Shown one piece after another: positions 2,460 to 19,125 of a stretch of DNA of 20,000 nucleotides (position 1 is its first letter; the number at the start of each line of letters is the position of its first letter). Origin of the DNA: an uncultured virus (IMG/VR IMGVR_UViG_3300038828_000030) (taxonomy: Duplodnaviria > Heunggongvirae > Uroviricota > Caudoviricetes); the IMG/VR virus record IMGVR_UViG_3300038828_000030. One strand, written 5' to 3'. The notes beneath the pieces are model-generated. The model had not been told where the DNA came from. It made no database searches and saw only the letters and a list, made by a program, of their open reading frames with translations. The position numbers and the translations under genes are program-made.

Positions 2460-2466
2460 GCCCGGG

Positions 2467-2572: not shown

Positions 2573-2630
2573 AGACCCATCGCAACAACCAATCGCCACC
2601 CACACCGGGCGGCCAACAGGAGAGACAGCA

Positions 2631-3292: not shown

Positions 3293-3302
3293 GGAGCGCA
3301 CC

Positions 3303-4662: not shown

Positions 4663-4991
4663 AAACCATCCACGCCCCCGAGATGCGCAGCACCACCGAG
4701 CGCTGCATCACCACCAGCACCGGCATCGCCATCGGACGATGCCACGTCCGCAAACCGCCGGCCCGTGTGGCCGGCAGTGTGAGCGGCCCGCACCGTCGCC
4801 CTGGCATCGCCGCCCGCGTGCTGGGCGTGATGGGCAGCATGCGCGCGCTGTTTGTCTGCATCGCCATCTGCGCGGCCGCGCTGCTCTTGAGCGCGTGCGG
4901 CCCGACAGACACCGAGGCGCTGCAGGACGTGGCGCTTGATCTGCAAGACGCGCAGGCTGCGGCCGTAGTCGCGGCGGCCAGCCGCAAGTGA
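4659..4991 (+). CDS. Hypothetical membrane-associated protein (MKTIHAPEM...; hydrophobic stretch ending LSAC)
   Basis: GAGGA RBS, ATGA overlap; ALFVCIAICAAALLLSAC segment. Confidence 0.7.
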   Translation: MKTIHAPEMRSTTERCITTSTGIAIGRCHVRKPPARVAGSVSGPHRRPGIAARVLGVMGSMRALFVCIAICAAALLLSACGPTDTEALQDVALDLQDAQAAAVVAAASRK

Positions 4992-5008
4992 TCAACCACG
5001 AGGAAACC

Positions 5009-5998: not shown

Positions 5999-7785
5999 AG
6001 ACCCTGACCCTGCAACAAGGATCGCCCGAATGGGCTGCTCACCGCGCTCGAAGCCTAAACGCCAGCGAGCTATCTGCGGCCATGGGCCTGTCCTCGTACA
6101 TCACCAGGTCGGCCCTCGTCAAACAGAAGGCGACAGGCATCGCCCCAGAGATTGACGCGGCCACTCAACACCGATTCAACAAGGGCCACGAGTTCGAGGC
6201 TATCGCGCGTCCATGGGCAGAGGAAATCATCGGGGAAGAACTTTTCCCTGTCGTACTGGCTGGCGAAGTTGATGCCCTGCCGCTGTCTGCGTCGCTTGAT
6301 GGACAAACCTTGACGGGTGATGTGACGTGGGAACACAAGAGCGGCAACGCGACGCTTCTGGCCCGTTTGGATGCTGGCGTCATCCCTGACGAATATCACC
6401 CCCAGATGGAGCAGGGCCTGCTGCTGTCTGGTGCAACTCGGTGCCTATTCATGGCGTCCAGTGGAGACCGTGAAGCCATGCGCTATGCGTGGTACGAGTC
6501 AAATCCTGAGTTGCGAGCCAAGATTGTTCCGACCTGGAGGCAATTTCAAGCGGATGTTGCCGCCTACGTCCCCACCGAACCCGCCGCGCCCGTCATGGCC
6601 GCGCCCATCGAAAGCCTGCCCGCCGTCGTGGTGCAGGTGCAAGGCGCGCTGACCGTTGGCGGCAACCTGGACGCCTTCGGTCAGGCCCTGCGCTCGTTCA
6701 TCGAGCGCATCCCCGCAAGACCGGCAACTGATATTGAGTTCGCAAACTGCGAAGCCGCCTGCAAGGCGCTGAAGAGGGCCGAGGACGCACTGACCCAGGC
6801 CGAAGACGGCGCGCTGGCGCAGATCAGCGACGTGGAGCTGATGCGCCGCACCGTGGCCGACCTCAAGGAGCTGGCACGGTCAACCCGCCTCGCGACTGAA
6901 AAGCTGGTCAAAGCCGAGAAAGACGCGCGCCGCACCGAGAAGGTCATGGCCGCGCGCCAAGCGTTTGAAACCCACGTCACGCGCCTGCAGATGGACATCA
7001 AAGGCGTGCGCCTGATCGTGCCCATGCCAGACTTCGGCGGCTCCATCAAGGGCCTGAGCAGCCTGGCAAGCATCGACGACAAGCTGACCGCCGCGCTGAT
7101 CGCCGGCAAGGCCGAGGCCAACACCCTCGCCAGCCGGATCGCGGGCAACCTGCAAACGCTCGACAGCGTGCCGCAGTACGCCCACCTGTTTGCTGACCGG
7201 CAGGAGCTGGCCTACAAGGACGCCGAGACGCTTGAGCTGCTGATGCAGAAGCGCGTCGATGCCGAGCGCGACCGCATCGAAGCCGAGCGCCAGCGTATCC
7301 AGCAGGACGAGGAACGCAAGGCCCGCGAAGCCGCCGAGCGCCAGGCCGAAGCGGAGCGCCAGCGCATCCGCGCCGAAGAGCAGCACAAGGCGCAGATGGA
7401 AGTCGCCGAAAAGCTGAAGGCTGAACAAGAGGCCGAGCGCCAAGCCAACGAAGACCGCCGCCGCATAGAAGCCCAGGCCGCAGAAGCCAAGAAGGCCGAA
7501 GCCGCCGCCCAGGCACAGCAGGCGATCCAGCAGGCCGAAGCGCCAGCCGCGCCAGCACCGGCGCCATGGGACGCCGACGAGGCGGCCACGCTCAAGTTGG
7601 GCGATGTGAACGCGCGCCTGGCGCCGATCCACGTCACCGCTGATGGCCTGCGCTCCATCGGCATTGAGCCGGCCGGGCGCGAGAAGAACGCGACGCTGTA
7701 CCGCGAAAGCCAGTTCGCGGAAATCTGCCAGGTGCTGGTGCTGCACCTGCAATCCGTCGTGCAGCCATCCGAGGCCACGGCATGA
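5995..7785 (+). CDS. YqaJ-like (lambda Exo family) exonuclease with long coiled-coil C-terminus
   Basis: QGSPEWAAHR, ASE, GHEFE, SASLDG, EHK, QMEQGL motifs; adjacent to bet. Confidence 0.92.
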   Translation: MKTLTLQQGSPEWAAHRARSLNASELSAAMGLSSYITRSALVKQKATGIAPEIDAATQHRFNKGHEFEAIARPWAEEIIGEELFPVVLAGEVDALPLSASLDGQTLTGDVTWEHKSGNATLLARLDAGVIPDEYHPQMEQGLLLSGATRCLFMASSGDREAMRYAWYESNPELRAKIVPTWRQFQADVAAYVPTEPAAPVMAAPIESLPAVVVQVQGALTVGGNLDAFGQALRSFIERIPARPATDIEFANCEAACKALKRAEDALTQAEDGALAQISDVELMRRTVADLKELARSTRLATEKLVKAEKDARRTEKVMAARQAFETHVTRLQMDIKGVRLIVPMPDFGGSIKGLSSLASIDDKLTAALIAGKAEANTLASRIAGNLQTLDSVPQYAHLFADRQELAYKDAETLELLMQKRVDAERDRIEAERQRIQQDEERKAREAAERQAEAERQRIRAEEQHKAQMEVAEKLKAEQEAERQANEDRRRIEAQAAEAKKAEAAAQAQQAIQQAEAPAAPAPAPWDADEAATLKLGDVNARLAPIHVTADGLRSIGIEPAGREKNATLYRESQFAEICQVLVLHLQSVVQPSEATA

Positions 7786-8173: not shown

Positions 8174-8182
8174 AAGCACAGC

Positions 8183-8413
8183 ATGAAAAACACTGATCAA
8201 TCGCGCCCGCCGTTCAAAATCAGCGGCGTCGCCACCATCAAGCACCTGAATGTCCGCAAGGAAGGCCCGGAGGACGAGAAGGTTCTGGCTGACGATGCTG
8301 CGCCCGAATGCACTTGTGCAGCGAAAGACATGACCTTTGGCCGATGCTGCAAGGTGACGCCCAACGCCCCGAGTTCAGCCGACGCGAAGCGGTCGGCTGG
8401 AATGAACTGTTAG
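8183..8413 (+). CDS. Chimeric hypothetical protein: unique N-terminus fused to the 81-bp repeat peptide and attC read-through
   Basis: C-terminal ADDAAPECTCAAKDMTFGRCCKVTPNA is identical to that of ORFs 11049 and 14053. Confidence 0.6.
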   Translation: MKNTDQSRPPFKISGVATIKHLNVRKEGPEDEKVLADDAAPECTCAAKDMTFGRCCKVTPNAPSSADAKRSAGMNC

Positions 8414-8415
8414 AA
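8359..8415 (-). other. attC site 1 (57 bp)
   Basis: Minus strand TTCTAAC-AGTTC-ATTCCAGC...GCTGAAC-TCGGGGC-GTTGGGC; imperfect hairpin with bulged bases. Confidence 0.85.
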
Positions 8416-8425
8416 GGCTGTATCC

Positions 8426-8662
8426 ATGAACAGACCAGAGCGAATTTACAACGTGAGCCAAACGCAATTGAGCGTTGCTAGGTTTTACGGCGGCTGCAAA
8501 TTCAACGGCGCGGATTATCACTACGACGCCGAAAGCGACACGCTGACACGCATGGACATTTGGCAAGCGCGATGCGCCAGCAGCAAGAAAGAAGCCGCGA
8601 AAGCAGCAAAGGCAGAGCGAGAAAAATGGATGAAGGCACAGCAGAGTTTTGCCGCCTTCTAA
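8426..8662 (+). CDS. Cassette-borne hypothetical protein (78 aa)
   Basis: Fills the interval between attC1 and attC2; stop TAA inside the TTCTAAC box. Confidence 0.8.
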   Translation: MNRPERIYNVSQTQLSVARFYGGCKFNGADYHYDAESDTLTRMDIWQARCASSKKEAAKAAKAEREKWMKAQQSFAAF

Positions 8663-8709
8663 CGCCGGAAATAAGCCGCCGCAGGTCGGCCTTGATTGAC
8701 CTGTTATGC
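8657..8709 (-). other. attC site 2 (53 bp)
   Basis: Minus strand GCATAAC-AGGTC-AATCAAGG...GCTTATT-TCCGGC-GTTAGAA. Confidence 0.85.
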
Positions 8710-8729
8710 AGAAACTTTAGGAATACCAA

Positions 8730-8981
8730 ATGGACACGATACAGCAAGAGCTTCGCAAGCCAGCGCACTATCTGAGCATGAGAAAGCGCGAGCAGGCTGC
8801 AAACTACATTGATAAGTTGCAAGCCGCCTTGAACCAGTACAGCGCAGACGAAGTGATGCTTACGCACCAATCAACTATCGCAGCGCAGGCCGAGCAAATC
8901 GAAGCCTTGACGCAGGCGATAGTCGAGCGAGACGCGATCATTTCGCAGTACATCGCAGCACTTGGCTATGTTGCGGCATAA
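8730..8981 (+). CDS. Cassette-borne coiled-coil hypothetical protein (83 aa)
   Basis: AGGA RBS after attC2; stop TAA inside GCATAAC. Confidence 0.75.
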   Translation: MDTIQQELRKPAHYLSMRKREQAANYIDKLQAALNQYSADEVMLTHQSTIAAQAEQIEALTQAIVERDAIISQYIAALGYVAA

Positions 8982-9027
8982 CCCGTGATTAGGCGACAAG
9001 CCCGCCCCGCGCCACGTCGCCTAATCA
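8976..9027 (-). other. attI-like simple site with a 12-bp inverted repeat
   Basis: Minus strand GTCGCCTAAT-CACGG-GTTATGC (L box, 5 bp, R box); TGATTAGGCGAC/GTCGCCTAATCA perfect inverted repeat; no second GTT/AAC box, so not an attC. Confidence 0.55.
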
Positions 9028-9079
9028 GCCACTGGCGCAAGCAAACCCCAATAGGCAAACCTAAAAAACCGAGGACGTA

Positions 9080-9748
9080 ATGACCCCGCTTGTACGTGAA
9101 ATGGCAGCCATCGTGCCGGAACCAGAAACCGCGCACTGGTTCGATCTGGGCACGATCCCCGGGCGCATCGAAGCCCAACGGGTGTATTGGGATGACATTC
9201 GCCACATGCCGTACCCGCGCACCATCGTGGTATTCATCACCGACAAAGGCAGCAAGGCCGCATGCTGGATACAGGCATCGGAACATTCGCTGTCCATGGC
9301 CTACCTGATGGTCGATCCAGGCAAAGCGCCTCGCTTTTCCATCCCCATTGTCATCACCGAGGTGGATGGCGAGCTGCGCTATGAAGCCAAGGGCGGCGAC
9401 GGCAAGGCCGCTGCGGGCGTGCTGTGTGCCATCGCCAAGCGCCTGCAAACCGCCAGTGCCGCCTACCGCCCCGAGTCGATTGGCACACCAGCGCAGCAGC
9501 GCAAGCGCGCGGCCAAAGGCAAGAGGCCACTGTTTGCATGGCACACCGTCACCATCGGCGCTACGCCCAAAGTAGCCATTGCTACGTCAGATGTAGCTGG
9601 CACGCACGCCAGCCCACGCGCGCACGACAGGCGCGGGCACTGGCGCACCTACCCCAGCGGCAAACGCAGCTGGGTCAAGCACTGCCGCGTCGGCAATCCT
9701 GCGGACGGGGTGGTGTTCAAGGATTACCGGATCAGGAGCGAGAAATGA
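9080..9748 (+). CDS. Uncharacterised phage protein with HASPRAHDRRGHWR motif (222 aa)
   Basis: GAGGA RBS; conserved-looking C-terminal HxRRGHWR motif. Confidence 0.8.
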   Translation: MTPLVREMAAIVPEPETAHWFDLGTIPGRIEAQRVYWDDIRHMPYPRTIVVFITDKGSKAACWIQASEHSLSMAYLMVDPGKAPRFSIPIVITEVDGELRYEAKGGDGKAAAGVLCAIAKRLQTASAAYRPESIGTPAQQRKRAAKGKRPLFAWHTVTIGATPKVAIATSDVAGTHASPRAHDRRGHWRTYPSGKRSWVKHCRVGNPADGVVFKDYRIRSEK

Positions 9749-10017
9749 GCACATACACACCACCCGACAAGATCGAGATTTACGCCGCCGCGCTGAAAAG
9801 CGACATCAACTCTGAGCGCTTCCAGGTTGTGGAGAGCGGCAGGCTCGAAACCTACTGGATCGGCACGGTATATGGCGGCGGCGTCGCAACCGAGCGCGGG
9901 CACAAATTTCGGACTGCAGAAGAGGCGTGGGACAACGCAAGCAAATTTGTGGAGCGCTGCGCGGAGATCGTCAGCGAGCGCGACCGCGCAGCCAAGGCAG
10001 GAGATCAGCATGGCTGA
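9745..10017 (+). CDS. Hypothetical phage protein (MSTYTPPDK..., 90 aa)
   Basis: AGGAG RBS, ATGA overlap. Confidence 0.7.
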   Translation: MSTYTPPDKIEIYAAALKSDINSERFQVVESGRLETYWIGTVYGGGVATERGHKFRTAEEAWDNASKFVERCAEIVSERDRAAKAGDQHG

Positions 10018-10108
10018 AAGCACGGTCTGGCGCGTGATGCACCCAGACGGCTCGCGCACGGTGGTGGGCGGTGGTTGCTCGGAGAAAGACAATGTCGCGT
10101 GCGCTTGA
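10010..10108 (+). CDS. Small hypothetical protein (MAESTVWRV..., 32 aa)
   Basis: AGGAG RBS; overlaps both neighbours. Confidence 0.45.
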   Translation: MAESTVWRVMHPDGSRTVVGGGCSEKDNVACA

Positions 10109-10700
10109 TGTGGTGACGCTGACCGGCGAGGAATACGACGACCTCATGGAATGCAAAGAGATGGTCGCCTCACTACTAGCCCAGTTGAGCGCCGCGAAAG
10201 ACCGAATTGCCGAATTGACGCCAGTTGCTGGAATGGACTGGCGGGAAACGATGCAGCGCATGCTGACACGCATGGAGGAAACAGACCGCTGGCCTGCGAT
10301 ATGCGACGAGGCGCGGGCCGTCCTGTCGCTGGCGAATGATGCCACCAGGGAGCCTGCCGCCTACCTGTGGGGCGGCTGCCTCTGGCGCACGGACGAAATG
10401 GGGCGCGGCAGACCTGGGGCAGTCGAACTGTATCGAGCGCAAACGCCGCTGACCGATGCCGACATTACCGCATTGCTTCCGATATGGCAGCAGGGATCAT
10501 GGACGCTGCCAGACTACGGCAGATGGGTAGCGCGGGCCGTCGAGCGGGCGCACGGGATCAAGACATCGCACAACCTATGCCTATCCTGCGGGCACAGCAT
10601 CGATGCCCACGACAAGCAATACGGCTGCGCAGAGGACGGGTGCGATTGCGAGACGCCCAACGATCAGCATAACCGGCCCGCTTCAGCGGGTCCGGGTTGA
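10092..10700 (+). CDS. Mosaic hypothetical phage protein with C-terminal CxSCGH...C...CxC motif, reading into attC4
   Basis: GGAG RBS before ATG 10092; ARAVERAHGI motif; stop inside attC4. Confidence 0.7.
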   Translation: MSRALDVVTLTGEEYDDLMECKEMVASLLAQLSAAKDRIAELTPVAGMDWRETMQRMLTRMEETDRWPAICDEARAVLSLANDATREPAAYLWGGCLWRTDEMGRGRPGAVELYRAQTPLTDADITALLPIWQQGSWTLPDYGRWVARAVERAHGIKTSHNLCLSCGHSIDAHDKQYGCAEDGCDCETPNDQHNRPASAGPG

Positions 10701-10714
10701 TGCGCCAGTTGGGC
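10655..10714 (-). other. attC site 4 (60 bp)
   Basis: Minus strand GCCCAAC-TGGCG-CATCAACC...GGTTATG-CTGATC-GTTGGGC. Confidence 0.88.
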
Positions 10715-10728
10715 GCGGGAGGTGAGAG

Positions 10729-11052
10729 ATGGGGACATACGTTGTTTGGTGCCCGGACCTGGGCCAGGATCAGGAAGACGGTGCGACGATCCCGGCGACC
10801 GACCCCGCCGATGCGGCGGAAGGGTGGGCCGAATGGCACGACCGCAGCAGTGCCGAATACCGGATTGCCAGCGGGCGCGAGGAGATCGTGATCGTCCGCG
10901 ACGTTGAGACAGGCGAGCAGCGCGAATGGATTGTGCGCGGCGAGGCGATGCCGTACTACACGGCGCAGCCTGGGGAGTCCGCGACGATCCGGGCGCAAGT
11001 GGCGCCGGGCCGATGGGAGGATGTTCCTAGACGTAGCGAGGCCAACGAATGA
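10729..11052 (+). CDS. Cassette-borne acidic hypothetical protein (107 aa)
   Basis: GGAGG RBS just after attC4. Confidence 0.8.
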   Translation: MGTYVVWCPDLGQDQEDGATIPATDPADAAEGWAEWHDRSSAEYRIASGREEIVIVRDVETGEQREWIVRGEAMPYYTAQPGESATIRAQVAPGRWEDVPRRSEANE

Positions 11053-11417
11053 AATGGCAGCCGATTGAAACCGCACCTACAGACGGCACCCGCATCCTGC
11101 TGCGCGGCAGGGGCGGCAAGATTGCGGATGGGCACTACGGACAGCCGGATGGGTGGGCAAACCCGAAGCGTTTTGTCTGGCCGTACATCCATGCTAATCC
11201 GACGCACTGGGCTCCGCTCCCGTTGATTGCTGCTGCGCCGGAAAACAAGAAATTGCGTGCCGCCATCGCAAAAGCAACAGGACGTGTGGTCGCTGACGAT
11301 GCTGCGCCCGAATGCACTTGTGCAGCGAAAGACATGACCTTTGGCCGATGCTGCAAGGTGACGCCCAACGCCCCGAGTTCAGCCGACGCGAAGCGGTCGG
11401 CTGGAATGAACTGTTAG
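11049..11417 (+). CDS. DUF551-like (WQPIETAP...PTHW) mosaic phage protein, reading through the attC1 copy
   Basis: WQPIETAPxDGTRILL...PTHWAPLP motif, then LIAAAPE/AAIAKA and a Cys-rich tail. Confidence 0.75.
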   Translation: MKWQPIETAPTDGTRILLRGRGGKIADGHYGQPDGWANPKRFVWPYIHANPTHWAPLPLIAAAPENKKLRAAIAKATGRVVADDAAPECTCAAKDMTFGRCCKVTPNAPSSADAKRSAGMNC

Positions 11418-11419
11418 AA
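11363..11419 (-). other. attC site 1, duplicate copy
   Basis: Identical to 8359-8415. Confidence 0.85.
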
Positions 11420-11429
11420 GGCTGTATCC

Positions 11430-11666
11430 ATGAACAGACCAGAGCGAATTTACAACGTGAGCCAAACGCAATTGAGCGTTGCTAGGTTTTACGGCGGCTG
11501 CAAATTCAACGGCGCGGATTATCACTACGACGCCGAAAGCGACACGCTGACACGCATGGACATTTGGCAAGCGCGATGCGCCAGCAGCAAGAAAGAAGCC
11601 GCGAAAGCAGCAAAGGCAGAGCGAGAAAAATGGATGAAGGCACAGCAGAGTTTTGCCGCCTTCTAA
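11430..11666 (+). CDS. Duplicate of 8426-8662
   Basis: Identical translation. Confidence 0.8.
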   Translation: MNRPERIYNVSQTQLSVARFYGGCKFNGADYHYDAESDTLTRMDIWQARCASSKKEAAKAAKAEREKWMKAQQSFAAF

Positions 11667-11713
11667 CGCCGGAAATAAGCCGCCGCAGGTCGGCCTTGAT
11701 TGACCTGTTATGC
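11661..11713 (-). other. attC site 2, duplicate copy
   Basis: Identical to 8657-8709. Confidence 0.85.
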
Positions 11714-11733
11714 AGAAACTTTAGGAATACCAA

Positions 11734-11985
11734 ATGGACACGATACAGCAAGAGCTTCGCAAGCCAGCGCACTATCTGAGCATGAGAAAGCGCGAGCAGG
11801 CTGCAAACTACATTGATAAGTTGCAAGCCGCCTTGAACCAGTACAGCGCAGACGAAGTGATGCTTACGCACCAATCAACTATCGCAGCGCAGGCCGAGCA
11901 AATCGAAGCCTTGACGCAGGCGATAGTCGAGCGAGACGCGATCATTTCGCAGTACATCGCAGCACTTGGCTATGTTGCGGCATAA
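11734..11985 (+). CDS. Duplicate of 8730-8981
   Basis: Identical translation. Confidence 0.75.
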   Translation: MDTIQQELRKPAHYLSMRKREQAANYIDKLQAALNQYSADEVMLTHQSTIAAQAEQIEALTQAIVERDAIISQYIAALGYVAA

Positions 11986-12031
11986 CCCGTGATTAGGCGA
12001 CAAGCCCGCCCCGCGCCACGTCGCCTAATCA
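11980..12031 (-). other. attI-like site, duplicate copy
   Basis: Identical to 8976-9027. Confidence 0.55.
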
Positions 12032-12083
12032 GCCACTGGCGCAAGCAAACCCCAATAGGCAAACCTAAAAAACCGAGGACGTA

Positions 12084-12752
12084 ATGACCCCGCTTGTACG
12101 TGAAATGGCAGCCATCGTGCCGGAACCAGAAACCGCGCACTGGTTCGATCTGGGCACGATCCCCGGGCGCATCGAAGCCCAACGGGTGTATTGGGATGAC
12201 ATTCGCCACATGCCGTACCCGCGCACCATCGTGGTATTCATCACCGACAAAGGCAGCAAGGCCGCATGCTGGATACAGGCATCGGAACATTCGCTGTCCA
12301 TGGCCTACCTGATGGTCGATCCAGGCAAAGCGCCTCGCTTTTCCATCCCCATTGTCATCACCGAGGTGGATGGCGAGCTGCGCTATGAAGCCAAGGGCGG
12401 CGACGGCAAGGCCGCTGCGGGCGTGCTGTGTGCCATCGCCAAGCGCCTGCAAACCGCCAGTGCCGCCTACCGCCCCGAGTCGATTGGCACACCAGCGCAG
12501 CAGCGCAAGCGCGCGGCCAAAGGCAAGAGGCCACTGTTTGCATGGCACACCGTCACCATCGGCGCTACGCCCAAAGTAGCCATTGCTACGTCAGATGTAG
12601 CTGGCACGCACGCCAGCCCACGCGCGCACGACAGGCGCGGGCACTGGCGCACCTACCCCAGCGGCAAACGCAGCTGGGTCAAGCACTGCCGCGTCGGCAA
12701 TCCTGCGGACGGGGTGGTGTTCAAGGATTACCGGATCAGGAGCGAGAAATGA
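12084..12752 (+). CDS. Duplicate of 9080-9748
   Basis: Identical translation. Confidence 0.8.
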   Translation: MTPLVREMAAIVPEPETAHWFDLGTIPGRIEAQRVYWDDIRHMPYPRTIVVFITDKGSKAACWIQASEHSLSMAYLMVDPGKAPRFSIPIVITEVDGELRYEAKGGDGKAAAGVLCAIAKRLQTASAAYRPESIGTPAQQRKRAAKGKRPLFAWHTVTIGATPKVAIATSDVAGTHASPRAHDRRGHWRTYPSGKRSWVKHCRVGNPADGVVFKDYRIRSEK

Positions 12753-13021
12753 GCACATACACACCACCCGACAAGATCGAGATTTACGCCGCCGCGCTGA
12801 AAAGCGACATCAACTCTGAGCGCTTCCAGGTTGTGGAGAGCGGCAGGCTCGAAACCTACTGGATCGGCACGGTATATGGCGGCGGCGTCGCAACCGAGCG
12901 CGGGCACAAATTTCGGACTGCAGAAGAGGCGTGGGACAACGCAAGCAAATTTGTGGAGCGCTGCGCGGAGATCGTCAGCGAGCGCGACCGCGCAGCCAAG
13001 GCAGGAGATCAGCATGGCTGA
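12749..13021 (+). CDS. Duplicate of 9745-10017
   Basis: Identical translation. Confidence 0.7.
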   Translation: MSTYTPPDKIEIYAAALKSDINSERFQVVESGRLETYWIGTVYGGGVATERGHKFRTAEEAWDNASKFVERCAEIVSERDRAAKAGDQHG

Positions 13022-13112
13022 AAGCACGGTCTGGCGCGTGATGCACCCAGACGGCTCGCGCACGGTGGTGGGCGGTGGTTGCTCGGAGAAAGACAATGTC
13101 GCGTGCGCTTGA
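13014..13112 (+). CDS. Duplicate of 10010-10108
   Basis: Identical translation. Confidence 0.45.
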   Translation: MAESTVWRVMHPDGSRTVVGGGCSEKDNVACA

Positions 13113-13704
13113 TGTGGTGACGCTGACCGGCGAGGAATACGACGACCTCATGGAATGCAAAGAGATGGTCGCCTCACTACTAGCCCAGTTGAGCGCCGCG
13201 AAAGACCGAATTGCCGAATTGACGCCAGTTGCTGGAATGGACTGGCGGGAAACGATGCAGCGCATGCTGACACGCATGGAGGAAACAGACCGCTGGCCTG
13301 CGATATGCGACGAGGCGCGGGCCGTCCTGTCGCTGGCGAATGATGCCACCAGGGAGCCTGCCGCCTACCTGTGGGGCGGCTGCCTCTGGCGCACGGACGA
13401 AATGGGGCGCGGCAGACCTGGGGCAGTCGAACTGTATCGAGCGCAAACGCCGCTGACCGATGCCGACATTACCGCATTGCTTCCGATATGGCAGCAGGGA
13501 TCATGGACGCTGCCAGACTACGGCAGATGGGTAGCGCGGGCCGTCGAGCGGGCGCACGGGATCAAGACATCGCACAACCTATGCCTATCCTGCGGGCACA
13601 GCATCGATGCCCACGACAAGCAATACGGCTGCGCAGAGGACGGGTGCGATTGCGAGACGCCCAACGATCAGCATAACCGGCCCGCTTCAGCGGGTCCGGG
13701 TTGA
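13096..13704 (+). CDS. Duplicate of 10092-10700
   Basis: Identical translation. Confidence 0.7.
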   Translation: MSRALDVVTLTGEEYDDLMECKEMVASLLAQLSAAKDRIAELTPVAGMDWRETMQRMLTRMEETDRWPAICDEARAVLSLANDATREPAAYLWGGCLWRTDEMGRGRPGAVELYRAQTPLTDADITALLPIWQQGSWTLPDYGRWVARAVERAHGIKTSHNLCLSCGHSIDAHDKQYGCAEDGCDCETPNDQHNRPASAGPG

Positions 13705-13718
13705 TGCGCCAGTTGGGC
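13659..13718 (-). other. attC site 4, duplicate copy
   Basis: Identical to 10655-10714. Confidence 0.88.
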
Positions 13719-13732
13719 GCGGGAGGTGAGAG

Positions 13733-14056
13733 ATGGGGACATACGTTGTTTGGTGCCCGGACCTGGGCCAGGATCAGGAAGACGGTGCGACGATCCCGGC
13801 GACCGACCCCGCCGATGCGGCGGAAGGGTGGGCCGAATGGCACGACCGCAGCAGTGCCGAATACCGGATTGCCAGCGGGCGCGAGGAGATCGTGATCGTC
13901 CGCGACGTTGAGACAGGCGAGCAGCGCGAATGGATTGTGCGCGGCGAGGCGATGCCGTACTACACGGCGCAGCCTGGGGAGTCCGCGACGATCCGGGCGC
14001 AAGTGGCGCCGGGCCGATGGGAGGATGTTCCTAGACGTAGCGAGGCCAACGAATGA
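13733..14056 (+). CDS. Duplicate of 10729-11052
   Basis: Identical translation. Confidence 0.8.
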   Translation: MGTYVVWCPDLGQDQEDGATIPATDPADAAEGWAEWHDRSSAEYRIASGREEIVIVRDVETGEQREWIVRGEAMPYYTAQPGESATIRAQVAPGRWEDVPRRSEANE

Positions 14057-14379
14057 AATGGCAGCCGATTGAAACCGCACCTACAGACGGCACCCGCATC
14101 CTGCTGCGCGGCAGGGGCGGCAAGATTGCGGATGGGCACTACGGACAGCCGGATGGGTGGGCAAACCCGAAGCGTTTTGTCTGGCCGTACATCCATGCTA
14201 ATCCGACGCACTGGGCTCCGCTCCCGTTGATTGCTGCTGCGCCGGAAAACAAGAAATTGCGTGCCGCCATCGCAAAAGCAACAGGACGTGTGGTCGCTGA
14301 CGATGCTGCGCCCGAATGCACTTGTGCAGCGAAAGACATGACCTTTGGCCGATGCTGCAAGGTGACGCCCAACGCCTGA
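14053..14379 (+). CDS. DUF551-like protein, second copy, with a shorter C-terminus set by attC5
   Basis: Identical to 11049 up to ...VTPNA, then TGA inside attC5. Confidence 0.75.
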   Translation: MKWQPIETAPTDGTRILLRGRGGKIADGHYGQPDGWANPKRFVWPYIHANPTHWAPLPLIAAAPENKKLRAAIAKATGRVVADDAAPECTCAAKDMTFGRCCKVTPNA

Positions 14380-14422
14380 ATTAAGCCGCGCCGAAGGCGT
14401 CGGCTTGAATGAATTGTTAGGG
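14367..14422 (-). other. attC site 5 (56 bp, aadA-type)
   Basis: Minus strand CCCTAAC-AATTC-ATTCAAGC-CGACGCC-TTC-GGCGCG-GCTTAAT-TCAGGC-GTTGGGC. Confidence 0.95.
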
Positions 14423-14448
14423 CGCATTGCCCGAAAAGGAAAGCAAAA

Positions 14449-14784
14449 ATGCTTGATGTGAAAATTGTCCTCGACGCAGTGCCGGACTACTTGTTCAAGG
14501 CGTGCGGCGCAGAAACGCAAGATGAGCGCGACACCGTCGCGGCATGCGTGCGGACGTATGCCCGCGACTGCATCACCGCGACGCTTCTCACCATTGAAGA
14601 TGGGCCGATCTTCAAGGATGCCTGGCGCTACCGCGTGATGGTGGAAAACGGCGCAGTACCCACGCAATGGCACGAAATCATCAGCGAACAGCGCGAAGGA
14701 TTCCGGGCACGCGCGGACGCCGCGTTTGACGATTTCGTTTCCGAGGAACTTTCGGATTACGAGTACGGTGAACATGCGCCCTAA
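14449..14784 (+). CDS. Cassette-borne hypothetical protein (111 aa)
   Basis: AAGGA RBS; stop TAA inside CCCTAAC. Confidence 0.8.
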   Translation: MLDVKIVLDAVPDYLFKACGAETQDERDTVAACVRTYARDCITATLLTIEDGPIFKDAWRYRVMVENGAVPTQWHEIISEQREGFRARADAAFDDFVSEELSDYEYGEHAP

Positions 14785-14838
14785 CGGCTGAGATAACCTG
14801 CGCGCTTTAGCGCGTCCGAGTTGATTGATGGGTTAGGA
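14779..14838 (-). other. attC site 6 (60 bp)
   Basis: + strand CCCTAAC-GGCTGA-GATAACC...AGTTGATT-GATGG-GTTAGGA. Confidence 0.8.
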
Positions 14839-14844
14839 GTAAGC

Positions 14845-15066
14845 ATGAAAAACGAAGAAATTTTTTACACGCACAAACAAAACGCTGTGGTGGATAACAG
14901 CGGAAAGCAGATAGCGATTGTTCTGCCTAGTAATTGCACTATGCGCGAAGCACGGGCCATGGCTGCTTTTGCTGCGCAGCAAATGAATCATGAGCTGCGA
15001 GCGAAAAAATTGAAGAAATCTAACGCCAAGGTAAGCGGCGGCGGCGCTTTTCCGCCGTCCGCTTGA
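14845..15066 (+). CDS. Cassette-borne hypothetical protein (MKNEEIF..., 73 aa), reads into attC7
   Basis: AGGAG RBS overlaps the end of attC6; visibly AT-richer than flanks. Confidence 0.75.
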   Translation: MKNEEIFYTHKQNAVVDNSGKQIAIVLPSNCTMREARAMAAFAAQQMNHELRAKKLKKSNAKVSGGGAFPPSA

Positions 15067-15080
15067 CCGACGTGTTATGC
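15018..15080 (-). other. attC site 7 (63 bp)
   Basis: + strand ATCTAAC-GCCAA-GGTAAGC-GGCGGCGG...CCGCCGTCC-GCTTGACC-GACGT-GTTATGC. Confidence 0.88.
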
Positions 15081-15097
15081 CTTTTGAGGATGATGCG

Positions 15098-15481
15098 ATG
15101 AAGAAGAAATACGACCCGCTGAAAGTGGAAAAGAGCGACCACCCTGACCTTGTTGGCGGGATTGTGTGGGCCGACTGCGAACTGGACTGGATTCGCGCCT
15201 ACGGGACGCGCTGCTACAACCACGGCAACGCAAAAGGCATGGAAGCCGGAAGGCTGCTGTTTGAAGAACCGAAAGTCGGCGCTGGCGATACGGCGGTAGT
15301 GACGAAGGAAATGATCGGCGCTGCGCACGACGTGATGCTGGCGAAGGGCGATTTCGTTCTGTCCGCCGCGCTGTTGGAGCGCATCTATTTGGCGATGGCT
15401 GCGAAGAGGCATAACACCCGATTAGACGACACCGCAGCCGCCATTGACGCCGCGCGCAGCGCAGGAGGGCAAGAGCCATGA
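15098..15481 (+). CDS. Cassette-borne hypothetical protein (MKKKYDPL...), reads through the attI-like site
   Basis: GAGGA RBS after attC7; ATGA overlap downstream. Confidence 0.75.
   Translation: MKKKYDPLKVEKSDHPDLVGGIVWADCELDWIRAYGTRCYNHGNAKGMEAGRLLFEEPKVGAGDTAVVTKEMIGAAHDVMLAKGDFVLSAALLERIYLAMAAKRHNTRLDDTAAAIDAARSAGGQEP
15409..15430 (-). other. Second attI-like simple site
   Basis: Minus strand GTCGTCTAAT-CGGGT-GTTATGC; same GCATAAC-N5-ATTAGRCGAC pattern as 8976-8997. Confidence 0.55.
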
Positions 15482-15942
15482 CAACTGACACCCGTCCCCT
15501 GGAGCCGACAGACGACGAGTTAGACGAACTGCGTCAAGCGAACAGCGGGCGACTGAACTTCGTCACGTTTCGTGAGTTCCGAGTAATTGCCCGCGCAGTC
15601 CTTGCCAAGTGGGGCACTCCCGCCACTGTGGGGGTGGAGCCGGTGGCGCGACTGGCGGTTGGGAAAACAAAAGGTGGCGTTTCGCTCACTCACATAGCCG
15701 AGCCAGCGGCCTTTCAGCTTCCAGAAGGCATGTATGCCCTCTACACCCCCCAGCAGCCCACCCAAGCCGTGCCGCCTGTAGGGCGGGAGCCGTTGCCATT
15801 CACTCCACGACAGCGCGAACGCCTGTTCAAAAACCGCCCGACCAATGTCGGCAAGGACTTGGCGCTGGCCGACTGGCATCGCGTGGTGGAATTTATCGAG
15901 GTCGCACACGGCATCAAAGGAGGCCAGCATGGCACTGAGTGA
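15478..15942 (+). CDS. Mosaic hypothetical phage protein (154 aa; ARAVLAKWG, EVAHGI motifs)
   Basis: GGAGG upstream, ATGA overlap. Confidence 0.75.
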   Translation: MTTDTRPLEPTDDELDELRQANSGRLNFVTFREFRVIARAVLAKWGTPATVGVEPVARLAVGKTKGGVSLTHIAEPAAFQLPEGMYALYTPQQPTQAVPPVGREPLPFTPRQRERLFKNRPTNVGKDLALADWHRVVEFIEVAHGIKGGQHGTE

Positions 15943-16207
15943 CGAACTGGAAGCACTGGCAAAGCGCCACGGTGCACTGAGCTACCGCAACCGCGCAGAC
16001 ACGCAGAACCCGGCCTTCGGGTTTTCGGTGGCGGGGCTGGAAAGCCTTCTGGCCGAAGTCCGCAAGCGGGATGAGGCGCTGATCCGCCAGCTTGTCGAGG
16101 CGCTGGAGGATTTTGACGACGCGGGGCCAATTGGCGAGGGCTGGAAATCAGACCGGCTGTTATCGCTGCTCGCATCCGCCCGTGCGCGGCTGGAGGGCAA
16201 GCCATGA
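15929..16207 (+). CDS. Hypothetical phage protein (MALSDELE..., 92 aa)
   Basis: AGGAGG RBS; ATGA overlap downstream. Confidence 0.75.
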   Translation: MALSDELEALAKRHGALSYRNRADTQNPAFGFSVAGLESLLAEVRKRDEALIRQLVEALEDFDDAGPIGEGWKSDRLLSLLASARARLEGKP

Positions 16208-16494
16208 CCCACGACGAGATCATGGCGATGGCGCGCGAGGCTGGGTTCCGGACGGGGCAAATCAACCTGTCCAATGGCCCCCCTGTGCCGTTCATCGCCC
16301 CGGCATCCGGGACGAGCTGCATGTTCGAGCTGGAACGCTTCGCCGCCCTGGTAGCTTCCGCCGAGCGCGAGGCGTGCGCGGCGCTGATCGAGAGCACGAC
16401 AGAGCGCAGCAGATGGATTCGCTGCGGCATCAACGGCACGCCCATAGAGCCGTGCCAGTACGCCGCAGCGATCCGCGCAAGGGGCAAGCCATGA
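16204..16494 (+). CDS. Hypothetical phage protein (MTHDEIMAMAREAG...LERFAALV...EREACA...AAAIRARG)
   Basis: GGAGG RBS; motif pattern common in small betaproteobacterial phage ORFs. Confidence 0.8.
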   Translation: MTHDEIMAMAREAGFRTGQINLSNGPPVPFIAPASGTSCMFELERFAALVASAEREACAALIESTTERSRWIRCGINGTPIEPCQYAAAIRARGKP

Positions 16495-16583
16495 GCCGCC
16501 GCGCCCGCACCCGGCGCGACAAGCGCCAGCCCATCGCCCCGAGTTCACCGGCTGCGAAGCAGTCCGGTGGAATGAATGGTTAG
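16491..16583 (+). CDS. Short ORF MSRRARTRRDKRQP..., interrupted by and reading into attC9
   Basis: ATGA overlap; after ~14 codons it enters the attC. Confidence 0.4.
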   Translation: MSRRARTRRDKRQPIAPSSPAAKQSGGMNG

Positions 16584-16585
16584 CG
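16529..16585 (-). other. attC site 9 (57 bp) with a non-canonical R' box GATGGGC
   Basis: + strand GCCCATC-GCCCCGA-GTTCACC-GGCTGC-GAA-GCAGTCC-GGTGGAAT-GAATG-GTTAGCG. Confidence 0.8.
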
Positions 16586-16603
16586 AACTGAAAGGATGAA
16601 GAG

Positions 16604-16783
16604 ATGGACTTGGACGACGTAAAAGAAATCGTAGCCAGGGCGACTGACAACAATTACGAAGAAGTCGATATTGTGTGCCTCCAGTGGCTGGAAGGCATTA
16701 CGTATGGTCATGGAAAAGATGGCGAGACGGCTCGAAAGTTGCTCGCTATTGTGCGGGAACTCATTGATATTGATGCAGGCTAA
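16604..16783 (+). CDS. Cassette-borne hypothetical protein (59 aa, MDLDDVKEIVARATDNNYEEV...)
   Basis: AAGGA RBS after attC9; stop TAA inside GGCTAAC; below the ORF-track cutoff. Confidence 0.7.
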   Translation: MDLDDVKEIVARATDNNYEEVDIVCLQWLEGITYGHGKDGETARKLLAIVRELIDIDAG

Positions 16784-16833
16784 CGCCTGAGATAACCGGC
16801 TGCGCAGCAGTCCGGTTGATGGACGGGTTAGGC
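16778..16833 (-). other. attC site 10 (56 bp)
   Basis: + strand GGCTAAC-GCCTGA-GATAACC-GGCTGC-GCA-GCAGTCC-GGTTGATG-GACGG-GTTAGGC. Confidence 0.9.
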
Positions 16834-16862
16834 GCGCGGTTGATTGACGAAAGGACAGACGA

Positions 16863-17195
16863 ATGCACCCGAGAGAGAAAGCGGCTATTGCCGCAACCCT
16901 GAGCGATGCCGGACTGCTGGACCGCGTGCGCGCCGTGGCTGGCCGCGACGTTGGCGACCCGCTGAACAACGCGCAGGACAGCGTGGCGCTGCGCGAGCAG
17001 TTCGACCTGACGGTTGAGTTCACGCACAGCAGCGTGATGGCGTTCAACGATGACGGCGTGTGCGCGACGCTGCGCTGCCACGCGCCCGACTCGCAACAGT
17101 GGTCGCGGCGTGCCGCGTGCGTGGCGGTGGCCTCGATGTGGACCCCGGCCATTGGCAAAGCCGCGCGGGCGGCAAGCGCCCAACGCCTGAATTAA
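16863..17195 (+). CDS. Cassette-borne hypothetical phage protein (110 aa; DPLNNAQDSVAL...RRA motif)
   Basis: AAGGA RBS; stop inside attC11. Confidence 0.75.
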   Translation: MHPREKAAIAATLSDAGLLDRVRAVAGRDVGDPLNNAQDSVALREQFDLTVEFTHSSVMAFNDDGVCATLRCHAPDSQQWSRRAACVAVASMWTPAIGKAARAASAQRLN

Positions 17196-17233
17196 GCCGC
17201 GCCGAAGGCGTCGGCTTGAATTGCTTGTTAGAT
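17178..17233 (-). other. attC site 11 (56 bp, near-identical to attC5)
   Basis: First 44 nt identical to 14367-14410; ends TGCTT-GTTAGAT. Confidence 0.93.
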
Positions 17234-17258
17234 GGCTGGTGGAGAAACGCGAGAACCT

Positions 17259-17360
17259 ATGAACCGAGTGATTTTCGGAGACTGCCCGACAAAACCGCAT
17301 GGGCTTTGCCGGGTAAGTGTACGAAATCAGCGTACGGATGATCTGTCAAGGATTACTTGA
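17259..17360 (+). pseudogene. Truncated ORF starting MNRVIFGDC (N4/N6 DNA methylase-like N-terminus)
   Basis: IxxGDC start typical of beta-class amino-MTases; sequence unrelated after 9 codons, stop at codon 34. Confidence 0.4.
17285..17313. terminator. Imperfect hairpin between convergent operons (possible terminator)
   Basis: CCCGACAAAACC-GCAT-GGGCTTTGCCGGG; no clear U-tract. Confidence 0.3.
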
Positions 17361-18003
17361 CTGCTGGCCTCATTGCTTCGCGGGCGGCGTCGTAGTCCCG
17401 CTCGCAGGCGAGTCCTGCGGCATGAGCGCGGTCAGCCGCGTCTGCCAGGATTCCCGCTCGCTGGTCAGCGCGGCCGAGCACGTCGGCGAGCACACCGATG
17501 GCATCACCGGCTGGCGGCTGGTGTCCGGCAGCGGCGGGATTTGCGCCTGGCGTGCCGTCAGCGCGATAGCGTTGGACGAGGGTGGCGAGCTGGTCGCGCA
17601 GGCGGTGCTCAGCAGCGCGAGCACGATCACGGTCAGCAGCGAGGGCAGATTGGACACGTTGAGACTCCTTGGCGTTGGCTTCTAGGGTTGCGGTCAGGGA
17701 CTGCTCTTTGGCGGCGATGGCGCGCTCGCGCTCCAGCGCCTGCTGGCGGGCGTCGGATTCGGCCTTGGCGTAGTCGCCGACCAACTTGTCGATACGGGAT
17801 TCGGCCTGCGCCAGCTTGACCTGGACGCCGGCCGTGATCTCGCGTTGGCCTACAAACGCGGCGCCCAGCACGCCAAAGGCAATCGTCCAGGCCAGCGCCG
17901 ACCACGCGCGCGGCGCGACAAAGTGAGCGGCCACGGCCAGGCCGAACGCGGCCAGGATGGCGGTGTAGCCGGCGGTGCCGGTGAGGAAATTCAGGACGCC
18001 CAT
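17353..18003 (-). CDS. Rz-like i-spanin
   Basis: N-terminal hydrophobic segments, long coiled coil, C-terminal ADRAHAAGLACERDYDA; downstream of endolysin; GGAG before ATG 18003. Confidence 0.85.
   Translation of the reverse strand: MGVLNFLTGTAGYTAILAAFGLAVAAHFVAPRAWSALAWTIAFGVLGAAFVGQREITAGVQVKLAQAESRIDKLVGDYAKAESDARQQALERERAIAAKEQSLTATLEANAKESQRVQSALAADRDRARAAEHRLRDQLATLVQRYRADGTPGANPAAAGHQPPAGDAIGVLADVLGRADQRAGILADAADRAHAAGLACERDYDAAREAMRPAVK
17370..17657 (-). CDS. Rz1-like o-spanin lipoprotein embedded in the Rz gene
   Basis: AGGAG RBS, lipobox LSTAC, Pro-rich, CSPTC; nested in another frame. Confidence 0.8.
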   Translation of the reverse strand: MSNLPSLLTVIVLALLSTACATSSPPSSNAIALTARQAQIPPLPDTSRQPVMPSVCSPTCSAALTSERESWQTRLTALMPQDSPASGTTTPPAKQ

Positions 18004-18073
18004 AGGTCGCTCCAGTACGAGGCTGCCGCTAGCCACCACGCGGCGCAGTGCATGAAGATCATTCCCATAGCGA

Positions 18074-18796
18074 TCACGTCCAGCCCCCCCGCCTCTGCTT
18101 GAGTCGTTGCCACACAATGTACCCGCACAGCCCCACCACGGCCACCAGCAGCAGAGGCACAAGCCACTCGCCCAGGATGTCCGCGCTGGTCTTCACGTCG
18201 GCCAGCGTGCGGGCGGTTTCAGCCACGGTGGCGACAGCTGCCGTGCCGCCGCCGAGGACGGCCGCGCGGTTGATTTCCGAATGCGCCATCGGGCGCTCGG
18301 GCTCGACAGCGTGCGGCATCGGGTCGGGGTCGTCCTCCGGCTCGACCGCCGGATCGGCCGCTCGCGTGGGCGTCAGGTACAGCGCGCCCTCGGCCGCACG
18401 GCGGCGCGTCAGGCCCGGCAGCTCACGGCCGCCCGCCCTGTTCCAGAGGCCAAAGGCCCGTGCGGCGGCCTGGTGGTCGCCCTCGTTGTGCCGCTTGATG
18501 ACCGTGCTGCGTGCCATGCCGGCCACGCCGACGTTGAAGGCGAAGCTCACCAGCGCATCGAACTGCGGCTGCGTGGCGTGGCCCTTGGTCGCGCGCTCGA
18601 CGCCACGCTCGTACTCGACCAGCTCACGGCGCAGGCGAATCTCGGCCTCGGCGCGCGTGATCGTGTCGCCCTGCTTCACGCCCTTGGTAAAACCGTAGCC
18701 GATGGTCCATGGGTCGCTTGGTATTGGCTTGTACGCCTCAGCGCGGAAGCCTTCAAATTCCTTGATGAGGTTCAAACCAGCGCTGGAGATTTTCAT
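18074..18796 (-). CDS. GH24 lysozyme endolysin with C-terminal membrane extension
   Basis: IKEFEG...AY...D.WTIGYG.T, QFDALVSFAFNVG, GLTRRRAAE; C-terminal hydrophobic helix WLVPLLLVAVVGLCGYIVW. Confidence 0.93.
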   Translation of the reverse strand: MKISSAGLNLIKEFEGFRAEAYKPIPSDPWTIGYGFTKGVKQGDTITRAEAEIRLRRELVEYERGVERATKGHATQPQFDALVSFAFNVGVAGMARSTVIKRHNEGDHQAAARAFGLWNRAGGRELPGLTRRRAAEGALYLTPTRAADPAVEPEDDPDPMPHAVEPERPMAHSEINRAAVLGGGTAAVATVAETARTLADVKTSADILGEWLVPLLLVAVVGLCGYIVWQRLKQRRGGWT

Positions 18797-19125
18797 TTTT
18801 GTCCCCCCATGTGAGACTGGACCCACATCCACAGCGCTGCCGCCATTGCCAGCAGGGCTGACCATGCGCCGCCGCTCACCAGCTTTTCCAGCACGGCTAG
18901 GTTCAGAGCTTTGCGCGACTTCATCAGCTCGATCTGCTCCTTGTGGTACTCGCGGTGCAGGATGGGGTCGCCTTCGGGGAAGCCGGATAAAAAAATGGTG
19001 CGCACCTCCACGAACTTGGTGTCCATGTGCGCCACCAAGCGCTGCTCCATGTCGTCGAGGCGCGTCTCCACGAAGTCCGCGATGTCGCGCGGGTCGTTGG
19101 ATTCAGGACGGTTCTGGCGTGGCAC
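18793..19125 (-). CDS. Putative holin/lysis membrane protein (single C-terminal TM helix)
   Basis: Directly upstream of endolysin with ATGA overlap; FPEGDPILHREYH motif and hydrophobic C-terminus. Confidence 0.65.
   Translation of the reverse strand: MPRQNRPESNDPRDIADFVETRLDDMEQRLVAHMDTKFVEVRTIFLSGFPEGDPILHREYHKEQIELMKSRKALNLAVLEKLVSGGAWSALLAMAAALWMWVQSHMGGQK

Follow-up and report, generated by a model that had tools for sequence, protein, structure and literature searches.

A probable integron-type cassette array with reversed gene orientation and no integrase in a tailed phage

The attC sites and cassettes of the array

The 20-kb stretch of DNA analysed here (hereafter, the window; IMG/VR record IMGVR_UViG_3300038828_000030) is phage DNA, and the tailed phage that bears the array comes from activated sludge or wastewater. 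Between positions 8359 and 17233, flanked by recET on the left and by lysis genes on the right, small open reading frames (ORFs) on the plus strand are separated by repeats of 53-63 bases, each with RYYYAAC at its left end, GTTRRRY at its right end, and an imperfect palindrome in between. We consider it very probable that this region is an integron-type cassette array without an integrase, that is, a cluster of attC sites lacking integron integrases (CALIN), lodged in the early rightward gene block of the phage, and that its coding plus strand is the recombining bottom strand. A CALIN, in the definition used by IntegronFinder, consists of at least two attC sites close together, with no integron integrase nearby; here, 12 sites lie within 8.9 kb, and the flanks scanned, 8.3 kb on the left and 2.8 kb on the right, are free of integrases.

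The sites were delineated with a covariance model, R1, built from 11 sequences, namely, the nine distinct sites of the window and those of the aadB and fosE cassettes. R1 finds 12 sites in the window, all on the plus strand (E 5e-19 to 1e-11), and nothing better than E=0.076 on the minus strand. Nine of the sites are distinct and score 53-81 bits, three are extra copies, and two further repeats, C and H, are decayed, C yielding no R1 match. Site A (8359..8415; left box GCCCAAC, right box GTTAGAA; 70.1 bits, E=4e-16) has an exact copy, A', at 11363-11419; site B (8657..8709; TTCTAAC ... GTTATGC; 56.4 bits, E=1.6e-12) is copied as B' at 11661-11713, and site D (10655..10714; GCCCAAC ... GTTGGGC; 53.3 bits, E=1.1e-11) as D' at 13659-13718. 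These are followed by sites E (14367..14422; 81.2 bits), F (14779..14838; 53.3 bits, E=1e-11), G (15018..15080; 60.6 bits, E=1.2e-13), I (16529..16585; 62 bits, E=5.6e-14), J (16778..16833; 71.2 bits), and K (17178..17233; 71.2 bits), the last, after which 119 non-coding bases lead to the lysis genes. The outer boxes carry AAC and GTT in eight of the nine distinct sites, the exception being site I, with the left box GCCCATC (AAC changed to ATC). Two other site finders were discarded: the strict consensus RYYYAAC...GTTRRRY is too narrow and recovers three sites only, and the ranking of AAC...GTT pairs by energy is noisy. Rfam holds no family for the repeats, its sole match being a chance snoRNA (E=0.94).

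Among the window sites, site E is the closest to the class 1 aadB and fosE sites; its matches to plasmid attC sites extend to at least 5000 records, with an identity of 80-90% in 4901, and include those of the aadB, fosE, and aac(3)-Ib cassettes. All nine sites of the window can be aligned over the whole length with those of aadB and fosE. In this alignment of 11 sites, a common structure accommodates 84.9% of the cells as paired, against 71.8% in column shuffles (0 of 500 as high) and no more than 46% with the partners slid. In the inner helix, where pairing reaches 90.8%, both sides have changed in 8 of the 13 pairs. The 3' arm has an invariant bulged T and bulged G in all 11 sites. Moreover, R1 recovers class 1 sites absent from its build, those of aac(6')-Ib, OXA-21, and qacG2. 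The repeats thus share with class 1 attC sites (aadB, aadA, fosE type) 80-90% sequence identity, the boxes, the unpaired spacers, the bulged T and G, and the variable loop; the outer boxes, the imperfect palindrome with extrahelical bases, and the kinship to experimentally used sites are all in evidence, and the repeats appear to be true integron attC sites of the aadA/aadB-like type.

These sites separate eight units of one to five small genes, given here with the boundaries set at AA^C in the left boxes; all lie on the plus strand. The first cassette (8365..8662) comprises centre A, the right box, ORF 8426-8662, whose TAA stop falls within the left box, and that box up to AA; its ends are complementary over 10 bases, and a copy lies at 11369-11666. 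A composite unit follows (8663..10660; copy 3004 bases on), made of centre B, ORF 8730-8981, left box GCATAAC (8976-8982), the decayed site C, and ORFs 9080-9748, 9745-10017, and 10092-10700. The next cassette (10661..11368) has two genes, ORF 10729-11052, which matches phrog_21008 (E=5e-41), and ORF 11049-11417, and 8-base end complementarity; its copy spans 13665-14372, with the second ORF ending at 14379. Centre E and ORF 14449-14784 form a cassette (14373..14784) with the ends GTTAGGGCGCAT / ATGCGCCCTAAC, complementary over 12 bases, and centre F forms another with ORF 14845-15066 (14785..15023), the final residues of which are encoded by site G. The second composite unit (15024..16534) contains centre G, ORF 15098-15481, left box GGCATAAC (15408-15415), and non-attC DNA with ORFs 15478-15942, 15845-16207, and 16204-16494. 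The array ends with the cassettes of centre I and ORF 16604-16783 (16535..16783) and of centre J and ORF 16863-17195 (16784..17183).

The gap between right box and start codon is 6-29 bases, and each right box is followed by a ribosome-site-like purine run and ATG; such gaps leave no room for promoters belonging to the cassettes themselves. Over 2200-17500, promoter-like and terminator-like sites occur at chance level (18 terminator-like sites against 16.9 expected), the sole divergent promoter-like pair lying at ~2470-2570. Given the short gaps and the chance-level scans, the cassette genes are probably read through from the phage early promoter.

Behind the left box GCATAAC of ORF 8730 lies an element (8976-9035) with a perfect 11-base palindrome (GATTAGGCGAC ... 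GTCGCCTAATC), no bulges, and no GTT box. Positions 8976-9021, with the first 39 bases of this element, recur at 97.8% identity in the IMG/VR locus L140 (1925-1970), behind a different left box, and a related remnant follows ORF 15098 (15409-15440). It could be a site that has decayed, or one of a second type. In two other loci, L026 (5984-6133) and L065 (2537-2686), two attC sites stand 25 bases apart and enclose an empty cassette, the first of the two having the right box GTAAGGA. As for cargo, a comparison of ten cassette proteins of the window with Pfam at E up to 10 returned nothing but noise. ORF 9080 (9080-9748, 222 aa), for which Pfam gives no match even at E=10, adjoins ESM Atlas clusters in which 31% and 19% of the members belong to an AcrVA2-like anti-CRISPR family (score 0.97), a lead only.

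Polarity of the cassette genes

The bottom strand of an attC site is the strand that integron integrases fold and cut, and class 1 integrons allow this strand to be named in the window. In class 1 loci oriented as the plus strand of the window, aadB, blaOXA-21, qacEdelta1, sul1, fosE, qacG2, blaIMP-1, and aac(6')-Ib all lie on the minus strand, and intI1 lies to the right, on the plus strand; on class 1 sites outside its build, R1 scores 28-43 bits on the window-like strand, compared with at most ~10-14 on the gene strand. Because the class 1 genes run opposite to the R1 strand, the plus strand of the window corresponds to the bottom strand, and it has the features of one, with RYYYAAC at the 5' end and the bulged T and G on the 3' arm. 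It is for this reason that the join point AA^C, proposed in the initial annotation of this DNA, is correct. The cassette genes of the window are on that same plus strand, as indicated by the PHROG match of ORF 10729 and by the ribosome sites. In classical cassettes, a promoterless gene is on the top strand, with the site downstream; here, the gene lies on the side of the bottom strand, preceded by its site. The window cassettes would appear, then, to be mirror images of the classical ones, each site belonging to the gene downstream of it. The cut of an integron integrase would fall in the left box, at AA^C, and the mobile cassette would consist of C, the site centre, the GTTRRRY box, the ribosome site, the gene, and RYYYAA, the site preceding the gene.

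Under the opposite assignment, the plus strand would be the top strand, as in ordinary cassettes; the crossover would take place in the right box, at G^TT, and every site would belong to the gene upstream. The gene ends would fit this: like those of classical cassettes, they fall within or next to the left box, which contains the TAA of 4 of 9 ORFs. The many continuations that follow GTTAG of site E in two sequencing runs, and the locus L117, where the tail of ORF 11049 is followed by an E-type centre, point the same way. L117, however, was obtained through the E-type pattern and is, hence, a biased observation. The class 1 genes lie opposite to the R1 strand; moreover, under this assignment, three different sites would fall to ORF 16604, namely, J (window), E (L140), and one more in run X7, and, inside the window itself, the tail of ORF 11049 precedes both centre A and centre E. 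We regard a top-strand array as very improbable, close to negligible.

The mirror orientation extends well beyond the window. An exact pattern for the E-type centre matched 127 IMG/VR stretches (an estimated 210 in all), and R1 gave 170 matches in 76 loci searched, with 25 contigs carrying at least three sites, up to 12, and none carrying sites on both strands. For the contigs with at least three sites, the longest ORF per strand was taken from each inter-site segment (173 ORFs, 150 of which were run against Pfam and PHROGs); strand calls from the longest ORFs are noisy in GC-rich DNA and were replaced by those of family-supported genes only. In the viral contigs, the supported ORFs are on the R1 strand without exception, 9/9 by Pfam and 21/21 by PHROG, the union being 23/23 in 11 contigs (two by Pfam only). 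A bacterial control, in which R1 matched 17 of 151 Pseudomonadota genomes, behaves differently: in six array loci (L164-L169) from four genomes, 11 of the 12 Pfam-supported ORFs run opposite to the R1 strand, and one is reversed. The difference between the viral (23/23) and the bacterial (1/12) counts has a Fisher P of 2.9e-8. In the CALIN of Tetrasphaera phage TJE1, the three R1 matches are opposite to the annotated genes, the canonical polarity, which implies that the reversal is not universal in phages. The mirror class thus seems to be common within this site family in viral contigs, without being a rule for all phages.

Among the 23 family-supported viral cassette genes, nine encode DNA methyltransferases (L025, L050, L056, L068, L070, and L079), the commonest recognisable cargo. 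Other genes in the viral arrays encode HNH endonucleases, a DHH phosphoesterase, and a queuine tRNA-ribosyltransferase-like protein.

Complementary ends and exchange of cassettes

In an excised circle, the two ends of one cassette would meet and form the stem of the R box, and should be, for that reason, complementary and cassette-specific, whereas an integrated site, being a hybrid of two cassettes, should pair poorly. The initial annotation had called attention to such complementarity, and the end pairs it quoted for eight units are all present at their positions, including GTTATGC/GCATAAC of ORF 8730 and GTTAGC/GCTAAC of ORF 16604. Counted from G of GTT, the perfect complementarity extends over 10 bases for ORF 8426, 7 for ORF 8730, 8 for ORFs 10729+11049, 12 for ORF 14449, 5 for ORF 14845, 9 for ORF 15098, 6 for ORF 16604, and 3 for ORF 16863. 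The pair of ORF 16863 had been given as nine bases with one mismatch; the pair exists, and the recount is three perfect positions, or 9 of 12 when mismatches are allowed. When the eight right ends are set against the reverse complements of the eight left ends in all 40320 re-pairings, the summed perfect run of 60 compares with a mean of 37.0 (sd 5.3; P=2.5e-4), so that the complementarity claimed is, indeed, better than chance. The excess of same-unit ends over the re-pairings is found both at the variable core positions 4-7 (28 against 17.6, P=2e-4) and beyond the core, at positions 8-12 (22 against 12.6, P=0.0024).

The companion claim, that the two boxes of one integrated site often mismatch, is borne out by eight of the nine sites (perfect runs of 1-6) and fails for site D (8). 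Circles rebuilt in silico by joining at AA^C, as had been suggested, are more stable than the integrated sites, the summed dG being -141.1 against -113.6, and the mean dG of circle-form sites is -17.6 with the own partner compared with -14.3 with wrong partners. The ends of one cassette would, it seems, form its own R box in the circular form, a cassette-specific complementarity that class 1 integrons share.

How the cassettes are distributed was followed through IMG/VR homologues of two cassette proteins. L140 shares window positions 14371-15421 at 96.6% identity, a three-cassette block that includes centre E, ORF 14449, site F, ORF 14845, site G, and ORF 15098. Upstream of this block, L140 has the ORF 16604 cassette (91% identical to window 16631-16837), which lies 2 kb further on in the window and is followed there by centre J, compared with centre E in L140; among the three sequences, the partners switch inside a shared AACGCCTGA of the left box. 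On the right, the block stops at GGCATAAC, beyond which L140 has an intact site and the window non-attC DNA. In both sequences, ORF 16604 has the same left box, with different centres behind it, and ORF 14449 has centre E, with different neighbours upstream, as a crossover at AA^C predicts. Since the L140 block has a different neighbour and both of its edges fall in the left box (AA^C), it would appear that cassettes move as units, each site travelling with its downstream gene, and that one cassette can be found in different arrays, bounded at the crossover point.

The ends themselves are consistent with such exchange. In the ORF 15098 family, the ends GTTATGCC / GGCATAAC are kept in five contexts (window, L140, L035, L143, and L144), with at least four different continuations after AAC. 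An ORF 14449 homologue in L138 (79% identical) has different and yet self-complementary ends, GTTAGAGCC / GGCTCTAAC, a compensated change; the ORF 14449 relatives in L137 and L139 have no sites at all. The comparison named in advance, whether homologues elsewhere keep their termini in other neighbourhoods, thus favours the annotation, the self-complementary termini being either the same or compensated. Its description of the units as integron-type cassettes agrees with the alignment of the sites to class 1 attC, with the circle-form folds, and with the termini of the homologues; excised circles would be the vehicle. In L141 (~1460-1480), the site before the ORF 15098 homologue is collapsed (GCATAAC GCCCA TTATGCC), with a right box that is missing its G, and looks as if the attC centre had been deleted. 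Site E, site K, and the third L140 site have identical centres and different right boxes.

Logan contigs from four runs of four other studies break at attC sites when compared with the array, at 16784, 16535, and 14780, in a noisy signal; the sides of these joints are 21-66 letters long and may stem from repeats, and parts of the array without cover carry no meaning. One contig of run X7 matches up to 16784 and continues into another centre, three contigs of run X3 join other DNA ending in TCTAA to 16535, and two X3 contigs have a joint at 14780. The pair L026 and L065, considered as evidence on the crossover, was set aside: the two are identical over three sites, diverge 11 bases into the next gene, and say nothing on it.

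As assembled, the array also contains an exact tandem duplication, in which 8288-11291 is repeated as 11292-14295 (3004 bases, 0 mismatches), with a third copy of the first 81 bases at 14296-14376; some of the 12 sites (A', B', and D') are, accordingly, mere copies. The duplicated unit spans from left box to left box, and either the re-integration of a multi-cassette circle or a RecET exchange between the 81-base repeats would yield it, and it may also be an assembly artefact.

It is here that a different origin of the repeats can be considered, namely, that they are intergenic hairpins of the phage, regulatory or terminator-like, and that modules are shuffled by RecET-mediated homologous recombination rather than by an integron-type process. 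RecT and RecE are encoded just upstream, and there is no integrase in the window; the L140 junction falls in nine shared bases, which could serve as microhomology, and the 81 identical bases that flank the 3004-base duplication would be enough for RecET. However, this explanation fails to account for complementary unit ends that change together (GTTAGGGCGCAT/ATGCGCCCTAAC against GTTAGAGCC/GGCTCTAAC), and it is at odds with sites that are 80-90% identical to verified attC and have the same bulged T and G, with the true IntI found beside such cassettes in the provirus G006 (see below), and with the lack of any excess of terminator-like sites. We regard it as improbable and retain the interpretation of the region as an integron-type array.

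The sites also contribute to the proteins. Four of nine ORFs end in the left-box TAA, and five read on into the site of the next cassette, so that their C-termini depend on the neighbouring cassette; the ORF 11049/14053 copies, for example, have 122 and 108 residues. The recombination site would seem, in these cases, to double as coding sequence. ORFs 8183-8413 and 11049-11417, otherwise unrelated, share their C-terminal residues (ADDAAPECTCAAKDMTFGRCCKVTPNA...), for which the 81-base repeat codes; contigs from two other studies span the junction 8287/8288 (X7 8040-8335, X8 8023-8322), which makes it clear that the chimeric ORF 8183 is real. Similarly, unrelated ORFs that read into a G-type site gain the same tail (...NAKVSG...), at window 15018-15066 and in L035 at 4497-4579.

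The integrase, related systems, and the phage setting

Integron integrases (IntI) are present in six of the viral loci examined, one of which is a class 1 integron. In the provirus G006 (L152 1-5000), a prophage-type integrase (1-1125) is followed by an IntI (1444-2508; 450 bits, with a cut-off of 265) and then by four attC sites, whose cassettes are on the same strand as the sites and run toward intI; a homologue of ORF 15098 (87%) is among them, as is a gene supported by PHROG. G006 thus appears to be a complete phage-borne integron of the mirror kind, and it places mirror cassettes beside a true IntI in the usual geometry of sites to intI. For the window phage, the cutting, and with it the formation of circles, could be due to the IntI of the host or of a co-resident prophage acting in trans on the array.

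Several observations weigh against the interpretation of the region as a cassette array served in this way. No integrase family was found among the 32 ORFs scanned in the 20-kb window, and intI, attI, and the Pc promoter, which accompany the array in a complete integron, are absent from it. The integron-integrase model, even at E 0.001, has no match in five viral genomes with 8-12 sites (CheckV completeness 90-100%; one with terminal repeats), three of which are marked as tailed phages by terminase or capsid families; in 14 of 14 control genomes, the same model matches ordinary tyrosine recombinases, of which the five show none at all. In such near-complete genomes without an integrase, the enzyme would have to act in trans. 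The composite units B-D and G-I contain decayed sites, and mobility may have been lost in part of the array. RecE relatives at 45-71% identity are without sites in the R1 search, and RecE relatives in four IMG/VR loci and two genome loci (44-52%) are without an attC array and point to no particular host. Behind GTTAG of site E, seven contigs of run X7 and six of run X14 continue differently, an ambiguous result that could mean a crossover at G^TT; we favour the explanation that many cassettes share the commonest centre. Finally, in 13 homologous pairs compared as to whether the site centre goes with the gene, the upstream centre is the more similar in seven and the other in six, from a biased sample; as the loci were obtained through one centre type, this comparison is uninformative and was rejected.

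Some of the same observations suit the view of a fossil array, taken over en bloc on one occasion from the integron of a bacterium or prophage and now inert, with the complementarity being left from a mobile past: the missing integrase, the decayed sites C and H, the left box of site I mutated to ATC, the composite units, and the RecE relatives without sites would all be expected of it. Against this view, a relative at 91-97% identity is already reordered, with breaks at the left box; further neighbours are found in contigs from other studies; the nine sites still score 53-81 bits; and the duplication is exact, hence very recent. We consider an inert array improbable and retain the reading of an array with mobile cassettes.

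In class 1 integrons, as in the viral loci, the geometry of the sites relative to intI is the same wherever intI is present. Unlike the window, where the site precedes the gene, the class 1 integrons in L005 and L006 have all annotated cassette genes on the other strand; conversely, the window has no intI, attI, or Pc, is part of a phage replicon, and carries small phage proteins as cargo, not resistance genes. The sedentary chromosomal integrons of L164-L169 give the same R1 matches, with 3-15 sites and one or few genes per cassette; they differ from the window in that four of the six (L165, L166, L168, and L169) have an IntI beside the array, at the canonical position, and in the predominantly opposite strand of the genes. 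Reverse-oriented cassettes, such as those of toxin-antitoxin systems, are a minority in the canonical arrays of chromosomal integrons and have their own promoters. These share the antisense orientation with the window, in which, however, every cassette is reversed and there is no room for promoters.

A search of open-access papers and bioRxiv turned up no account of reversed polarity in phage attC arrays and one paper on phage attC arrays (Qi, Rajabal, Ghaly, Tetu, Gillings 2023, PMC9892861). In the accessible portion of that report, 17 phage CALINs are described, each with at least two predicted sites; five of six tested phage sites recombine with IntI1, and DNA methyltransferases are noted as cargo. 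These CALINs resemble the window in being integrase-less attC clusters inside phage genomes. Their arrays have 2-3 predicted sites (three in TJE1, 2-3 in the rows of its Table S1), compared with 12 in the window, nine of them distinct, and the paper attributes to TJE1 a cassette structure of the typical kind, which agrees with the canonical polarity given by R1 and contrasts with the reversed one of the window. The aadA7 control-site oligonucleotide in Table S3 reads in the orientation of the plus strand of the window, the colour marking of the strand not being visible in that copy, and the same portion is silent on any reversal of the genes.

Integrons are familiar as devices of bacteria, and the printed phage examples are few and small; a phage with a dozen working-looking sites of the type found in clinical resistance cassettes means that one integrase could bring cassettes of both origins together. 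What would be new here is direct evidence of the exchange of single cassettes between phage genomes, as read from the comparison of arrays, along with a whole class of viral arrays with reversed gene polarity that bacterial arrays with the same sites do not share. Conceivably, many phages of wastewater and freshwater share a mirror-built cassette pool of their own, with the gene on the recombining strand and the site in front, which is exchanged between unrelated phages by the IntI of hosts or of prophages such as G006. The polarity would allow the genes to be read in one-directional phage operons running toward intI, and would silence phage cassettes captured by bacterial integrons and vice versa, so that the machinery would be shared and expression kept separate; the cargo would consist chiefly of DNA methyltransferases and other counter-defence genes. 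We put forward this joint reading tentatively, as a possibility that falls somewhat short of an even chance. If the mirror orientation is a functional rule, it would explain how phages shuffle small early genes (methyltransferases and, possibly, counter-defence genes) and would bear on the unsolved origin of cassettes.

Among the 24 runs listed, which come from 13 studies of activated sludge, wastewater, freshwater, and biofilm, 23 contain the stretch with the array. GenBank phages match the whole window only in the methylase (seven records), no cultured phage being alike beyond it, and the sole match of a 3-kb array piece among them is an Escherichia coli P1 that carries a class 1 integron. 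The backbone begins with a C5 DNA methylase on the minus strand (512-2287). A run of early-type genes on the plus strand comprises a hexapeptide-repeat protein (3724-4662; Pfam Hexapep, E=4e-36), a RecT-like annealing protein (4988-5998; Pfam RecT, E=2.6e-22), a RecE-like exonuclease (5995-7785), and small ORFs; the region of RecT and RecE (4988..7785), taken jointly, also matches phrog_2449 (E=1e-94) and phrog_7655 (E=5e-145). To the right of the array, an Rz-like spanin (17353-18162) and an endolysin (18074-18865), both on the minus strand, converge on it, the region of the two (17353..18865) matching DUF2514 (E=3e-19), Phage_lysozyme (E=7e-42), phrog_312, and phrog_7. Some cassettes have a GC content of 53-55% (segments 8501-9000 and 14501-15000), against 60-75% in the phage backbone, which fits a foreign origin of the cargo. 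Within the hexapeptide-repeat gene, 26 tandem units of 18 bases (3799-4491) are unusually regular at the DNA level.

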